A DNA stretch of 42,054 nucleotides, from the IMG/VR virus record IMGVR_UViG_2609459819_000001, positions 1-42,054 of that record. One strand, given 5' to 3'. This document shows, piece by piece, positions 1,014 through 29,502 of this stretch (positions are counted from its first letter, which is position 1; each line of letters begins with the position of its first letter). Both the position numbers and the translations under genes were made by a program. The notes under the pieces were generated by a model. The model was not told the origin of the DNA and made no database searches. It worked only from the letters and a program-made list of their open reading frames with translations. The stretch is from a virus (lineage: Duplodnaviria; Heunggongvirae; Uroviricota; Caudoviricetes).

Positions 1014-1693
1014 TAGAGTATTGTCCCCCATGCTCCAACATCGAACCCGCCGATGTATTCGTTATCCATATCAAACCCAAAGAATTTAGAGCCCTCGGAT
1101 GGTGCTTCTACCGAAGGCGTTTCAACATCACCGGCCCATACGCCAGCTGCTTTAACGGTGAGATAGCCCTGTTTGATAGCGGCAATCAGTTCAAGAGACA
1201 CATCAGAAATATCAGTCTCGGGGAATACCCAAACCGATATCGTCATGTCCTGGTTGTCGACAATTTGCATCCTCAGGCCTGAGCCTTCAGTCGCAGCGTC
1301 AAGGATGGGAGGCAGAGAGTCGTTCCGACCGTCCCAGTTGTTGATAGCGATTTTCGCTTTCAGAATGATGCGGTACGTCTCATCGCTTAGCGTCGTATAG
1401 CCAGAATCAGGATCATATGGCCCTTGCCAGATGCCCTGGTCATACCCAAGCCCGTCAGTGTCCCAGCTGAAATAAACTCCGCTAATTGGCTGGCTGACTA
1501 TGCGACTGCGTCCGATCCACAGACCGAGGATGTCGAGCTGTACACCGACAGCAGTATCAATATCGAAGGCTGTTATAAGCCCTGACATAGTGCTGGACAC
1601 ATCAATCAGCGGGCGGGTGCTCAGATCTATATGGTCAAAAAAGAGTGGCTTGGTAGCGTGGTAGTTAGTGATCAGTTCGGTGTATTTGCTCAT
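1013..1693 (-). CDS. Baseplate / tail-fiber-proximal structural protein (gpI-position)
   Basis: 226-aa ORF between J-like gene and tail fiber; TAATG stop/start overlap with tail fiber; assignment by position. Confidence 0.4.
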   Translation of the reverse strand: MSKYTELITNYHATKPLFFDHIDLSTRPLIDVSSTMSGLITAFDIDTAVGVQLDILGLWIGRSRIVSQPISGVYFSWDTDGLGYDQGIWQGPYDPDSGYTTLSDETYRIILKAKIAINNWDGRNDSLPPILDAATEGSGLRMQIVDNQDMTISVWVFPETDISDVSLELIAAIKQGYLTVKAAGVWAGDVETPSVEAPSEGSKFFGFDMDNEYIGGFDVGAWGTIL

Positions 1694-2889
1694 GAGGTCA
1701 CCGTGATACTGATATTCGCGGTGCTACAGGACGCAGAAGCATCATAGGCAATATCAATGTTTGATGCCGATACGCTGCCAGACGACTTACCGATCAGCAG
1801 GTCGGTAATATCGTAATAGCGGGCATTCCCGCCGCTCACAACGCCGAGGTTTGCCGGGGAATAAATACGGCTCAGCAGAACGTCGTCGCCAATTGTTAGG
1901 CCATTTATATAATCGGCAACAGCCTGTTTAATCTGCTCGCCGATTTGAGAGGTATAGCCGGTAAAAACTTTCAGGGTAATGGCTACGAAAATTGGCACAT
2001 CGGTAGAGCGCGAAAAACTGATGACGTGTGGATTACCGTAAGTATCCGGCACCGTGACAGAAGTTTTACCGTAAGTTGCGGTTCCCTGCCCTTTACTCCC
2101 CCGGATTGTTTGGGCTATCTCGGTAACATCCCCTCCATCGACGATGGCGGAAATAGAGTGTGGCGGCAGCCCGTTGCTGTCGGTTGCCCCAGTGTCGTTC
2201 TCATATAGTTTGTGACGTGTCACGCCAGCAACATTAGCGATAGCACCGTCGACACCTTCAAACGGTGTGATCGATGGTAGCGCGACGCTTTGCCCCTGCC
2301 GAATGCGCAGCTCTGCGTCGGTTTCGGCTGGTGAACCGACAGTAGCCGCAACTGGATTGGTTACCGACACCCAACCTCGGGTCGGGGTGTTGATAGTGGT
2401 AATAGTCCCGGCCAGCGCCGCAACCGAACCGCTATTCGCACATGTGGCCGTCACCAGCACAGTACCATCAACGCCGATCGCTACACTTGCGGGAAAATTC
2501 CAGATAATGCCGTTTTTATCCCGTGCGGAGCCATTCGTGATAGTCGTGCCTGCCGTACCGGTTAACAGAAGGTCAGCAGTAGAGTTTGTCGCTACTTTTC
2601 GCGTGATCCCGTTAATTTTCACATTGCTGCTAAGCGCTGCGGCCTGCGCTGTCGTCGGTGAAAAAGAGTTGTAGATCCCGATAGCGGTGTTGTTAGCGTC
2701 ATGCACGGCAAGAGCCACCAGCGCGACCATCTGCCCGTCTTTGCTGTCTGGTTCGAGGTAGGCATCACTACCGTAAATCTGCCTGAAATAGCTGGTCAGT
2801 GTATCTAGGATTGTCTGGTAATCAGGCGCACTAATCCCCTGGGCGGTTACCGTTGCCGATAGCCCCAGCGTGTCGAGGTTCAAAGCCAT
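1690..2889 (-). CDS. Baseplate J-like protein
   Basis: 399-aa ORF; size and position (after W-like, before fiber) as in Mu gp47 / P2 gpJ; start overlaps the upstream stop. Confidence 0.5.
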   Translation of the reverse strand: MALNLDTLGLSATVTAQGISAPDYQTILDTLTSYFRQIYGSDAYLEPDSKDGQMVALVALAVHDANNTAIGIYNSFSPTTAQAAALSSNVKINGITRKVATNSTADLLLTGTAGTTITNGSARDKNGIIWNFPASVAIGVDGTVLVTATCANSGSVAALAGTITTINTPTRGWVSVTNPVAATVGSPAETDAELRIRQGQSVALPSITPFEGVDGAIANVAGVTRHKLYENDTGATDSNGLPPHSISAIVDGGDVTEIAQTIRGSKGQGTATYGKTSVTVPDTYGNPHVISFSRSTDVPIFVAITLKVFTGYTSQIGEQIKQAVADYINGLTIGDDVLLSRIYSPANLGVVSGGNARYYDITDLLIGKSSGSVSASNIDIAYDASASCSTANISITVTS

Positions 2890-3243
2890 TTATGCCTCGC
2901 TTGTTACAGTCGTCTGGCCGTAGATTGTGTCAATGGAGGAAGTGAAGGTGACGCGACGGCTGGTGCCGTCATAATTGGTATCGAAGGAAAGAATCGACAG
3001 AACGCCCGGTGTGTCCTGTATGCGTTCACGTATAGCCAGGATGTAGACGTCAGATCGCTGTTTACCAAGCACCGACTGAACATACGGCGTGCCTTCCGTC
3101 AGATCGAGAAACCACTGACCGCGCCACAGCTCGAAGCGGGTTTTTACTGCCTGGGCGACACATTCCGGACTGTCGATAAGGAAAGTATCGTCACCCTGCC
3201 CGAAAGTGTAATCACCGTCGGCGTCTTCACGTCTGTATCGCAT
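2890..3243 (-). CDS. Small baseplate protein (gpW / Mu gp46 position)
   Basis: 117-aa ORF immediately upstream of J-like gene. Confidence 0.4.
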   Translation of the reverse strand: MRYRREDADGDYTFGQGDDTFLIDSPECVAQAVKTRFELWRGQWFLDLTEGTPYVQSVLGKQRSDVYILAIRERIQDTPGVLSILSFDTNYDGTSRRVTFTSSIDTIYGQTTVTSEA

Positions 3244-3246
3244 AAA

Positions 3247-3345
3247 TCACCACCAGCGTATAGCGCTAATAACGCTTGACAGACCGAATAAAAAGAACAC
3301 GGCCCAGATGAGGAAGAATTTCCAGTTGGGTAGTTTTTCGCCCAT
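3247..3345 (-). CDS. 32-aa hydrophobic small ORF (MGEKLPNWKFFLIWAVFFLFGLSSVISAIRWW)
   Basis: Manually translated; GGGAG about 9 nt upstream of ATG; one predicted TM helix; below the ORF-track length cut-off. Confidence 0.2.
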   Translation of the reverse strand: MGEKLPNWKFFLIWAVFFLFGLSSVISAIRWW

Positions 3346-27291: not shown

Positions 27292-27540
27292 TCAGACCGT
27301 TGATTTCATATTATCAGAAGGTGGGGTTACCCGGTAGCCGAGACGGTGAATAAACTGCATAAAACCATTAGGAGTAAAGACCTCTTCATCATCCAGCAAA
27401 GGCCGCATAGAAACCATGCCATTGACGCGATAAATTAGATGCCTGCCCGATGAAGGAAAGCTAAACACCACGCAGCCGTCAGACCTTCTTACAATGTCAT
27501 ACCAGTTGTCATCTGACGTTTGCAAAGCTGAATCACTCAC
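27292..27540 (-). CDS. Hypothetical 82-aa protein, likely co-transcribed with the dinI-like gene
   Basis: GTG start with AGGGAG upstream; no terminator seen between it and dinI-like gene. Confidence 0.3.
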   Translation of the reverse strand: MSDSALQTSDDNWYDIVRRSDGCVVFSFPSSGRHLIYRVNGMVSMRPLLDDEEVFTPNGFMQFIHRLGYRVTPPSDNMKSTV

Positions 27541-27657
27541 ATTTATGTTCTCCCTTCGAGCGACTAACAGACGCGATTAAAGATTGTCGGCAGCAGCATC
27601 AGAGGGTTACGCAAATTGCGGTATTCTGATAAATGCGCGCCAGCCTTAAGCGCAATT

Positions 27658-27891
27658 CTAATAAAACCAGTCGTCAGCGCTTTCCCAGGTTTCCTGGAGG
27701 ATGGATTCGATTTTCTTTTTATCGTCCTTGTCTCCACCGAAAACACTTAACCCATCGGACCCGGCACGGCGGATTGTGAGCCTGCAATTGTCATAGTGAT
27801 CATTCAGGCGCTTAAGCAATTCTTTCTCCAGTGCTGGTACCGCGCCTTTAGGAAGTTCTTTCATGCGATCAATGGTTAATTCAACTTTCAT
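27658..27891 (-). CDS. dinI: DinI-family protein
   Basis: C-terminus KKIESILQETWESADDWFY matches DinI signature; start at second ATG with GGAGG 5 nt upstream; LexA box directly upstream. Confidence 0.75.
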   Translation of the reverse strand: MKVELTIDRMKELPKGAVPALEKELLKRLNDHYDNCRLTIRRAGSDGLSVFGGDKDDKKKIESILQETWESADDWFY

Positions 27892-27909
27892 AATGGCCTC
27901 CATTGCATG

Positions 27910-27929
27910 TACTGTGTTTTTATACAGTA
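27910..27929. promoter_or_regulatory. LexA (SOS) box TACTGTGTTTTTATACAGTA
   Basis: Perfect CTGT-N8-ACAG with flanking TA/TA, 19 nt upstream of dinI-like start codon, overlapping a TATACT -10-like hexamer. Confidence 0.7.
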
Positions 27930-27990
27930 TACCTATGCACGGAAATGATCAACGTTTTAAGAGCACAAATTGTTAATTTTCTGTCAGTAG

Positions 27991-28018
27991 AAAAAAAAAA
28001 AAACCCGCCGTAGCGGGT
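27991..28018 (-). terminator. Strong intrinsic terminator (minus strand)
   Basis: ACCCGC-tacg-GCGGGT stem followed by a 12-13 nt T run on the minus strand. Confidence 0.6.
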
Positions 28019-28222
28019 TGAATTAGCAATGTTTTATTAAGCCGCTATTTGTTTCTGCTGACAAAGCTCTGGCAAATTTGCACGCACCAGTGCTTCAGCA
28101 AACATCGCTGGCTCCGCCGTGAAATCGCGGGATTCTGTTTTGTATCTGCTAATTATGAACCAGCAGAAACTTTACTAAGATATGAAAATTAGCCTGCTTA
28201 AACAGCCTTTATGAAAGGTTAG

Positions 28223-28690
28223 TTAATCTTCAAAAAGCTTAAAAGCCAAGTAAGCAACACTTGCGACTGCTGCGACAGGTGCCACCGCTGTGATTATTGC
28301 CCCGGCGGCCATTCCTCCTCCAACAACCGAACCAACGGCTGCCATTCCGGATGAGATCGACGCAGCCCCTGCCGTTCCTGCTGCGCCTGCTAAAGATGCA
28401 ACACTGGCTCCAACTGTTCCAGCTGTTGCAGACATTATAGTAGCAGCTGACCCACCAGTAACGGCCGAAGCTGTAGTGGCTGCAACGCCAGCAGTTCCGA
28501 TCAATCCACCAGCACCGACAATTGTTGAAGATTTTATTTCTGAATTTGAATCAAGCACAGTTTTTCCAGGCGACCGAGAGTTCGAATCTTCTATAGTGTT
28601 CTCCCTAACGGCTTGTTCAAGGGCCTCGGCAAATACTCTCACTGCCTGCTGGGGTGATGAATGTTGCACAACTTCATTCTTAGTATCCAT
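28223..28690 (-). CDS. Gly/Ala-rich putative membrane-active protein
   Basis: 155-aa ORF; polar 55-aa N-terminus then about 100 aa of G/A/S/T/V-rich sequence with repeated small-xxx-small spacing; GGAGAG 6 nt upstream; own downstream terminator. Confidence 0.4.
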   Translation of the reverse strand: MDTKNEVVQHSSPQQAVRVFAEALEQAVRENTIEDSNSRSPGKTVLDSNSEIKSSTIVGAGGLIGTAGVAATTASAVTGGSAATIMSATAGTVGASVASLAGAAGTAGAASISSGMAAVGSVVGGGMAAGAIITAVAPVAAVASVAYLAFKLFED

Positions 28691-28818
28691 TATCGCTCTC
28701 CGGGTATAATTTCATTGCTGTCCATTATCATAAACTAAGATTTACACTCTCAGTAATGTCCATCTCACAATGCATAATCAAATACACTCGAAACATTATT
28801 CATTGTTGCTACGGTGAG

Positions 28819-29295
28819 TCAGCTAAAATCAATACGCTCATGATTCATTCTGTCATGTACACATGGCTCACCGTCTTTCGGCTCAGGCCATTTGCGCTGT
28901 TTGTTAATCGCCAACTTCTCTACCATCGCTTGGGTAATCTGTTCATCACTGATACCGGCACGACGTTGCGCATCCCATAACAGGAATTGCATGTCAGCCC
29001 ATTCGGTAAGGTCACTTGGTTCAGCTGCCGCCTCGAGCGCTTCTTTGGAAAGGTGCTTCAGCGGACCAACTGGACCGACATCGCCGAAAGTAGCCTGTGA
29101 CCATGTAGCATGCTCACGGCGTACTTGCTCACGGGCCATCGACTCCAGAACTCCATCAATCACCTTCACAGCATCAGCCATTGCGTAGCCGAGATTACCG
29201 CCGTCGCTTTGTGCTGCTGCGTTGCTGAGTATTTCGCGTATCTGGTGCAGGCGATCGAGTGATACATGACCGTGCGCCGGGTGGTTAGTTGTCAT
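28819..29295 (-). CDS. DUF550-like protein (possible dATP/dGTP pyrophosphohydrolase domain)
   Basis: 158-aa ORF; family assignment from memory of similar prophage proteins, not verified. Confidence 0.35.
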   Translation of the reverse strand: MTTNHPAHGHVSLDRLHQIREILSNAAAQSDGGNLGYAMADAVKVIDGVLESMAREQVRREHATWSQATFGDVGPVGPLKHLSKEALEAAAEPSDLTEWADMQFLLWDAQRRAGISDEQITQAMVEKLAINKQRKWPEPKDGEPCVHDRMNHERIDFS

Positions 29296-29298
29296 GGG

Positions 29299-29502
29299 TT
29301 AGTCCGTCCAGTAAGTAAGTTCTTCCGCCAGGCGGTCATCTGCTTCGGCTTGGTTAGGGATATCAGCATCGGTTTCTATGCTGGCTCCGGCAAAATCACG
29401 AGCACAAGCTTTGCGGTGTTTACGATTGCCCATGTCCCATTCTGGATTTTTAAGCTCTTTGTTCCATGCCCGTAGCATGAGTTTCATTGGTGACTTTGAC
29501 AT
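29299..29502 (-). CDS. Hypothetical 67-aa protein
   Basis: ORF in tightly packed early-right operon. Confidence 0.3.
   Translation of the reverse strand: MSKSPMKLMLRAWNKELKNPEWDMGNRKHRKACARDFAGASIETDADIPNQAEADDRLAEELTYWTD

Follow-up and report, generated by a model that had tools for sequence, protein, structure and literature searches.

A Gly/Ala-rich small protein encoded by an apparently acquired cassette in the nin region of a lambdoid prophage

The window that we analyzed is a 42,054-nt stretch of viral DNA (class Caudoviricetes; IMG/VR record IMGVR_UViG_2609459819_000001) whose nearest relatives are the phages mEp237, HK225, and phi80 along with prophages of Escherichia coli. Here we consider a minus-strand gene for a glycine- and alanine-rich protein of 155 amino acids (aa), together with the 3′ region and terminator that follow it. 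A sequence-only reading of this DNA had described the protein as membrane-active-looking and had suggested that it might be a toxin, an exclusion factor, or a lysis modulator. The gene and its immediate features are as follows:

28223..28690 (including the stop codon), minus strand: coding sequence of the Gly/Ala-rich small protein, 155 aa, from the list of open reading frames (ORFs), with an ATG start.
28226..28534, minus strand: conserved family core, codons 53–155 (103 residues), uncharged and G/A/S/T/V-rich, with four predicted helices and an FKLFED end.
28535..28690, minus strand: polar N-terminal extension, codons 1–52, lineage-specific, with a predicted amphipathic helix at residues 13–35.
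28698..28701, minus strand: Shine-Dalgarno sequence GGAG, 7 nt upstream of the ATG, from the sequence.
28724..28753, minus strand: weak sigma-70-like promoter candidate, CTGAGA-18-GATAAT, with 9/12 matches.
28290–28709, plus strand: antisense Pro/Ala-rich ORF, a compositional shadow of the minus-strand gene.

The basic description of the gene holds up. The ORF (28690..28223) does have its own Shine-Dalgarno sequence (GGAG, 7 nt before the ATG), and a polar N-terminus is indeed followed by about 100 residues that are mostly G, A, S, T, or V. Specifically, residues 1–53 are polar and include 15 charged residues, and residues 54–150 are 84.5% G/A/S/T/V and form a 97-residue stretch without any charge. 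The 52-aa extension is likely to be translated, given the ATG with a good Shine-Dalgarno sequence. An in-frame GTG at codon 46 (28555–28553) would, if used as a start, yield a 110-aa product of the size that is usual for the family. We found no homologue of the extension among 5.8 billion proteins (searched with the N-terminal 55 aa), and nothing similar is present in any family locus. Within its own lineage the 155-aa protein is not rare: it is indexed in 558 blocks of public assemblies, is called identically in the 24 contigs that we read, and is present at 100% identity in four IMG/VR viral contigs. Each of the six places that we viewed in the 24 contigs has DUF550, the 155-aa gene, and DinI in this order. 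Across the gene, there is zero nucleotide variation in the 10 other copies that we compared, which suggests that it was acquired recently. This invariance also means that a comparison of single-nucleotide polymorphisms (SNPs) cannot tell whether the N-terminus codes.

The core has relatives in many bacteria. Our search of the 5.8 billion proteins gave 25 matches, 17 of them strong and similar over the C-terminal ~105 residues only. In an alignment of the 155-aa protein with 16 relatives (A1), similarity lies within the core, identity ranges from 43 to 70%, and 23 columns are invariant. We also searched 1.84 billion cluster representatives exhaustively with a profile; 186 clusters matched at E ≤ 1e-3, and at E ≤ 1e-10 the number was 32. 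When we scanned one genome for each of 185,579 species, we found 31 loci, scattered over Gamma-, Beta-, and Epsilonproteobacteria, cyanobacteria, Desulfobacterales, Flavobacteriaceae, and Fusobacteria. Close members are 60–75% identical across Gamma-, Beta-, and Epsilonproteobacteria, cyanobacteria, and Fusobacteria. Canonical members have 105–112 aa and an N-terminus of the form M-S-x-x-x-K-x-S-T; most start 5–6 codons before the conserved Lys, and a few (e.g., P0006 and P0009) have polar N-terminal extensions. There is little or no variation across the family in the motif GSxVGGGMAAG and at the residues P138 and Y147.

A homology and structure search had been proposed as a check on the protein. 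It found these relatives of the core; it did not link them to a known family, as profile searches gave no meaningful match for the tight family in Pfam, NCBIfam, PHROG, or PADLOC models or in PDB sequences. The remark that the protein is unlike canonical phage functions is thus borne out by the Pfam, NCBIfam, and PHROG comparisons. (A tblastn search of phages gave no match, but this says little: its low-complexity filter masks the G/A core, as a BLAST run of our own with SEG confirmed, and we used DNA searches instead.) We also found no description of the family in the literature on glycine zippers with prophages, anti-phage defence, superinfection exclusion, or LRAT. From these sequence comparisons, we conclude that the family is conserved, rare, carried by mobile elements, and previously undescribed. 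Whatever its function, it is useful for annotation: a real family that crosses phyla and is missing from every domain library that we searched.

Distant relatives (e.g., P0046, P0069, P0095, P0030, and P0035) contain a C-terminal module of ~70 aa, sometimes twice. The proteins that carry this module at their C-terminus include LRAT/NlpC-P60, ADP-ribosylglycohydrolase (ARH), and XRE-type helix-turn-helix (HTH) proteins. This distribution suggests that the Gly/Ala module is an undescribed, reusable membrane domain. Four distant relatives (P0021, P0069, P0095, and P0105) weakly match part of the profile of BnzA of the Bunzi system, a TerB protein with two predicted transmembrane (TM) helices, at positions ~282–409 of 544 (E = 6e-8 to 7e-4). 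The matched stretch may be the TM hairpin, and the similarity may reflect a shared Gly-rich TM composition. The window protein, P0007, and P0013 do not match BnzA/TerB, and we found no BnzB partner.

It had also been proposed to check whether the antisense Pro/Ala-rich frame is the real gene, using codon statistics. Codon usage does not separate the strands: with log-likelihoods of −0.10 (sense) and −0.03 (antisense), neither frame is typical of the phage (14 phage genes score +0.14 to +0.47). Relative to five homologous genes from other organisms, there are 919 substitutions at third positions of sense codons, versus 351 and 278 at the other positions. The ratio pN/pS of nonsynonymous to synonymous differences (NG86 method, ungapped alignment of homologues from other taxa) is 0.31 for the sense frame, and at 0.37 the antisense frame also resembles a sequence under purifying selection. 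Because third codon positions are common to both frames, the antisense frame mimics purifying selection, and we used the conservation of ORF boundaries instead. A stop codon in the antisense frame is possible only opposite a sense Tyr, His, or Gln codon, so this frame is automatically open over the G/A core. In the homologues it closes 2–24 codons past the core (59 codons in the window itself), and its length varies from 73 to 139 aa. In contrast, the sense ORFs of unrelated taxa have conserved boundaries: a Shine-Dalgarno sequence and an ATG 5–6 codons before the conserved Lys, and a stop codon directly after FKLFED. Sense alignments are full-length, have higher amino-acid identity, and outscore the antisense alignments (99 versus 69 bits). 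Also, the flanking genes and the terminator are all on the minus strand. So, the ORF boundaries decide a question that codon statistics leave undecided, and we conclude from this comparative evidence that the minus-strand ORF is the gene, that it is a real gene under purifying selection, and that the antisense ORF is its compositional shadow.

An antisense Pro/Ala ORF accompanies every family member, with a mean amino-acid identity of 63%. It looks conserved because coding rich in GCN, GGN, ACN, and GTN yields no stops in the frame that shares third positions. Such ORFs are a predictable artefact of GCN/GGN-rich coding and a trap for gene callers and for dN/dS tests.

The gene lies in a cassette that appears to have been inserted into the phage, and what follows it downstream is of mixed origin:

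28104..28864, minus strand: acquired cassette of 761 bp, delimited by homology breaks and made up of the last 15 codons of the DUF550 gene, a 128-nt intergenic region, the coding sequence, and 119 nt of 3′ sequence.
28104..28222, minus strand: cassette-borne 3′ untranslated stretch, 119 nt; a search of flanks for its origin was negative.
28037..28103, minus strand: relic 3′ end of a displaced DNA (cytosine) methyltransferase gene, from annotation in relatives.
27991..28019, minus strand: intrinsic terminator, a stem-loop (28019–28002) plus a T-run, from a terminator scan.

Homology to the closest prophage (L011, in E. coli 2022CK-00450) stops at 28099 and resumes at 28865; the breaks are at 28103/28104 and 28864/28865. 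Neither blastn nor megablast matched the 761-bp cassette to any of 5,426 complete E. coli genomes or 50,697 phage records. The G+C content at third codon positions (GC3) of the conserved core is 0.31, compared with a total G+C of ~0.50–0.65 for the neighbouring phage sequence (a figure that is not the phage's GC3). The DUF550 gene (28819–29295) is a mosaic. The part that begins at 28865 and runs upward shares 99.6% identity with the allele in L011, and the last 15 codons are those of the cassette-bearing lineage, which differs at ~20 sites upstream. Because identity to L011 switches at 28865, we place a recombination junction inside the DUF550 gene.

The cassette occupies a slot in the nin region, between the gene for the DUF550 dATP/dGTP pyrophosphohydrolase and the relic plus terminator upstream of dinI. 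In L011, the same slot (1601–3335; NZ_CP104681.1 2746100–2747834) holds RosmerTA, an anti-phage toxin-antitoxin (TA) system (PADLOC E = 2.4e-26 for RmrT and 1.6e-106 for RmrA). (RefSeq labels the two RosmerTA genes of L011 merely as "helix-turn-helix domain-containing protein" and "hypothetical protein.") In mEp237 the slot contains gp47, for which a promoter is annotated, together with a methylase fragment. The slot is filled by other small ORFs in KMi029 and by an intact Dcm in further genomes. Across L011, L012, L014, and 51 E. coli genomes, the place of the cassette is taken by RosmerTA, Dcm, gp47, or other ORFs. By this comparison, we conclude that the cassette is foreign to the phage and is allelic with the defence and anti-restriction cargo of sister prophages.

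These features resemble those of lambdoid nin-region morons such as RosmerTA and orphan Dcm, which share the slot, the variable presence, the foreign composition, and a downstream terminator. As for morons generally, the gene is variably present at a fixed slot among near-identical phages and has an atypical base composition. Having a promoter and terminator of its own, which permit expression while the prophage is repressed, is another hallmark of morons; here, the terminator is inherited from the displaced gene, and the promoter candidate, with its 9/12 matches, is no better than those in shuffled sequences (2 sites versus 2.7 ± 1.5 in shuffles). The cassette also differs from the known lambdoid morons in that it has a single small gene with no recognizable domain and no demonstrable promoter.

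The sequence-only reading had described an unusually long 3′ region of about 200 nt with a dedicated terminator. A strong intrinsic terminator is present ~200 nt after the stop codon (28223), with a 7-bp stem that includes 5 G-C pairs and a long T-run after it. It is not dedicated to this gene, and the length of the 3′ region is largely due to the relic: positions 27900–28103 are 91–97% identical to 51 E. coli prophages and phage mEp237, none of which have the 155-aa gene. The homologue of 28037–28103 is annotated in L011 and L012 as a pseudogene ("DNA methyltransferase, incomplete, missing N-terminus"), and in other genomes it is the end of an intact Dcm gene. As prophages without the gene have the same terminator and roughly one third of the same 3′ region, we conclude that these were inherited from the displaced methyltransferase gene. 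What had looked like a long 3′ region with its own terminator is thus a relic of a methyltransferase, and it marks a site in lambdoid prophages that is a hot spot of recombination.

We found no evidence of a small RNA (sRNA) or another functional element in the 3′ region from Rfam, folding, or flank comparison. Rfam searches (the whole window at the gathering threshold, and 27850–28850 at E ≤ 1) gave only sub-threshold matches driven by the terminator. The fold of the region has a z-score of −3.5, due mostly to the terminator and to a single 10-nt inverted repeat, which is expected by chance. Positions 28104–28222 have no similarity to the flanks of other family loci, and otherwise identical copies of this stretch differ by SNPs at 28157 and 28106.

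Relatives of the gene are found in a variety of mobile elements. In a Vibrio-type contig (L001, 8001–9097) and a marine metagenome contig (L003, 7038–8327), the family gene is at the border of an element that truncates comM, whose remnants are ChlI/Mg-chelatase fragments; among the genes of the L001 element are those for a serine recombinase, Mob_Pre, and a Phage_GPA replication protein. The neighbours of other members are a HigBA-like pair on a Rep3 plasmid (L007), RelE and HepT/MNT modules (L009), a Bro-N gene in Escherichia albertii (L021), and, judging from translated sequences, type I restriction-modification genes and an integrase in Acinetobacter (L029). In Enterobacter cloacae (L013; CP056477.1, 6787–7806), the family gene is on an 8-kb ColE1-type plasmid and is the third of a trio of genes for small Gly-rich membrane proteins, after a TM2/NINE gene and a gene for a protein with a zinc ribbon and a glycine zipper. 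A homologue of this zinc-ribbon protein is encoded ~1.5 kb from the family gene in a metagenome-assembled genome of the Moraxellaceae (L020). In Xenorhabdus mauleonii (L025, 5607–6336), a PAAR gene precedes the family gene by 109 nt, and the two are part of a type VI secretion system (T6SS) island with a VRR-NUC effector and TsiV immunity protein; this is the only locus that hints at delivery by a T6SS. An all-against-all comparison of the neighbours at 30 loci found no protein family in more than 3 loci and hence no conserved partner. The family gene is a stand-alone cargo gene, nearly always in mobile or conflict-rich regions.

As for the protein itself, AlphaFold2 predicts core helices at residues 54–79, 82–104, 109–122, and 128–154, along with the N-terminal helix at 13–35. 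The predicted local distance difference test (pLDDT) is 73–77 for the N-terminal helix and 59 overall. A canonical 108-aa member (modelled from 26 sequences) has the same four helices, with a pLDDT of 51. Kyte-Doolittle hydropathy exceeds 1.6 only at residues 117–151 and is 1.0–1.3 elsewhere. A membrane location is plausible. Homo-oligomeric packing of the helices would best explain why small residues are nearly totally conserved across phyla.

We are confident in the genomic and structural description as a whole. What the protein does is a more tentative matter. The explanation that we favour, which we consider possible at a little less than an even chance, is that the gene is a horizontally acquired moron in the nin-region slot of a lambdoid, E. 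coli-type prophage and encodes a membrane protein that acts in conflict. The protein would insert in the inner membrane, with its N-terminus and its charged C-terminal FKLFED both in the cytoplasm. The strongly hydrophobic last helix would be the anchor, and the three weakly hydrophobic, small-residue helices would pack into a tight homo-oligomer. This oligomer might then alter the permeability of the membrane or block a membrane step of a competitor, which is the weakest step of the proposal. For the lysogen, the outcome would be superinfection exclusion or abortive-type defence, rather than morphogenesis or lysis. Taken separately, a mechanism based on conflict or permeability is doubtful, and we hold it with less than even confidence.

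Analogy with known toxins motivates the permeability step. Glycine-zipper helices drive pore formation in TelE, CdzC/D, Tse4, and VacA, and for TelE, permeabilization was tested with expression, dye assays, and G-to-V mutants (PMC10434224). By analogy with these proteins, a glycine-zipper-like assembly of the family might conduct ions. The family shares small-residue helices, a G-rich motif, and conflict neighbourhoods with the TelE C-terminus, CdzC/CdzD, Tse4, and the VacA N-terminus. It differs in having no secretion-targeting domain or leader and no immunity gene, and just 1 of 30 loci is in a T6SS island. No homology to glycine-zipper toxins was found via Pfam and NCBIfam models (a comparison through models, not with the toxin sequences directly). 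We also considered the glycine-zipper families of Pfam and related families of small membrane proteins in stress (Gly-zipper_Omp, Gly-zipper_YMGG, Rick_17kDa_Anti/SlyB, and Transgly_assoc/YmgE-GlsB). These are likewise small, Gly-rich, putatively membrane-embedded, and helical. Neither the window protein nor any of the 17 members matched their hidden Markov models at E ≤ 10, and our family differs from them in lacking a lipoprotein signal and in having ~100 aa of continuous uncharged sequence instead of a two-TM hairpin.

Several observations weigh against the idea of a conflict membrane protein. First, the AlphaFold2 confidence is low for both models. Second, three of the four helices are under the usual hydropathy threshold for TM helices. 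(The four predicted helices, one of them clearly hydrophobic, do speak for the membrane-active look that had been noted, as does the use of the homologous module at the end of LRAT, ARH, and HTH proteins.) Third, the glycine-zipper-like spacing that had been claimed is not enriched: the pattern [GAS]xxxGxxx[GAS] occurs 6 times, versus 6.2 ± 2.0 times in shuffles of the same composition. (The near-invariance of GSxVGGGMAAG does speak for the claim.) Fourth, neither experiment nor homology links the 155-aa protein to any function; in particular, the best PADLOC match for the window protein and the tight family is not significant (E = 0.11). Fifth, the slot also holds genes without known function, so that location is weak evidence; such as it is, it favours the suggestion of an exclusion factor, given the presence of RosmerTA or Dcm in sister prophages. 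Sixth, evidence for a promoter that would be active in the lysogen is only at the level of chance. Finally, known glycine-zipper pore formers have immunity genes, and none is conserved at the 30 loci.

The lack of a conserved immunity partner disfavours a constitutively toxic pore or a secreted bacteriocin. This leaves two main alternatives: an effector that is regulated or conditional and acts in exclusion or abortive defence, or a membrane protein that is harmless and protective. A more specific form of the conditional effector seems unlikely to us: a single-gene mobile membrane effector in which a Gly/Ala helical oligomer provides defence or exclusion, by gated depolarization or by a block to DNA entry, that is interchangeable with RosmerTA or Dcm, and whose ~70-aa module is a reusable effector or anchor domain. 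If a partner-less membrane effector were indeed encoded here, it would be a compact, single-gene addition to the defence and exclusion functions of prophages, and it would establish a Gly/Ala-rich membrane domain that is new and that larger conflict proteins also use. In any case, the uncharacterized family is what is new, and the setting, a moron in a hot-swap slot, is already known.

The strongest competitor, which is somewhat unlikely, is a protective or neutral membrane protein: either an orphan, immunity-like shield against pore-forming toxins (colicins, T6SS, or Cdz-type) or a stress-related or stabilizing protein that benefits the host. A harmless protein would need no antitoxin or immunity partner, which fits the 30 loci, and orphan immunity genes often travel alone. 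The Xenorhabdus relative, directly after a PAAR gene inside an effector-immunity island, would fit as well, as would the module's use as a plain C-terminal anchor in the LRAT, ARH, and HTH fusions. In its size and its four predicted helices, the protein also resembles the small polytopic immunity proteins of pore-forming colicins. However, the protein has no sequence or profile similarity to immunity or stress-protein families, its composition is much less hydrophobic than that of typical polytopic immunity proteins, and the family is strictly conserved across phyla without an obvious cognate toxin that is equally widespread.

Another possibility is a self-standing membrane toxin, whether an exported bacteriocin-like peptide (similar to microcin H47/V or CdzC/D) or a toxin of the type I TA kind. 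Class II microcins and Cdz proteins have a similar uncharged composition, rich in G/A/S/T/V. Small plasmids (ColE1-type and Rep3) are among the carriers of the gene's relatives, and some relatives adjoin TA modules. The resemblance to Cdz proteins is also in line with the discussion in PMC10434224. Nevertheless, this seems improbable. The sequence-only reading had called the protein bacteriocin-like, and a secreted bacteriocin is unlikely: family N-termini (M-S-x-x-x-K-x-S-T) have no conserved GG cleavage motif and do not fit the double-glycine leader consensus, the window protein has its 52-aa polar extension at that place, and no ABC/C39 exporter, membrane fusion protein (MFP), type I secretion system (T1SS), or immunity gene is conserved among the neighbours at the 30 loci. 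The family is also longer than the class II microcins H47, M, and V, has no maturation genes, and matches no bacteriocin model in NCBIfam or Pfam. As for a type I toxin, products of 105–155 aa exceed the usual size (<60 aa), no plus-strand promoter that could drive an antisense RNA was predicted in 27500–29500, and there was no Rfam match.

A role in the timing of lysis, as a holin, antiholin, or pinholin-like factor, is very improbable. Glycine zippers mediate the assembly of pinholins, and the family gene of L050, a P2-like viral contig, comes directly after an endolysin gene and a small gene (phrog_9646) that could be read as a holin. But this is the only locus that adjoins an endolysin, and 28 of the 29 other family loci have no lysis gene as a neighbour. 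In the window, the gene belongs to the early nin region and lies upstream of the presumed lysis region (~22.1–23.7 kb, assigned from ORF layout only) by ~4.5 kb, and the terminator separates it from the downstream genes. Also, sister phages lyse without it. The earlier suggestion of a lysis modulator is not supported.

Finally, we give almost no credence to the idea that the product is the antisense Pro/Ala ORF, or that the region is non-coding, in view of the conserved boundaries of the sense ORFs.

The genes around the slot are early or nin-region genes of the lambdoid kind, and all are on the minus strand: upstream are O-like and P-like replication genes, a ren-like gene with a winged HTH, Ead/Ea22, and DUF550, and beyond the 155-aa gene are DinI, DUF1367, YbcO, RusA, and Q. 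Downstream of the terminator and immediately upstream of the DinI-family gene (27658–27903) is a perfect LexA box, TACTGT-N8-ACAGTA (27910–27929), which occurs once in the window versus 0.04 times expected. Because of this box, the prophage dinI is probably SOS-regulated.

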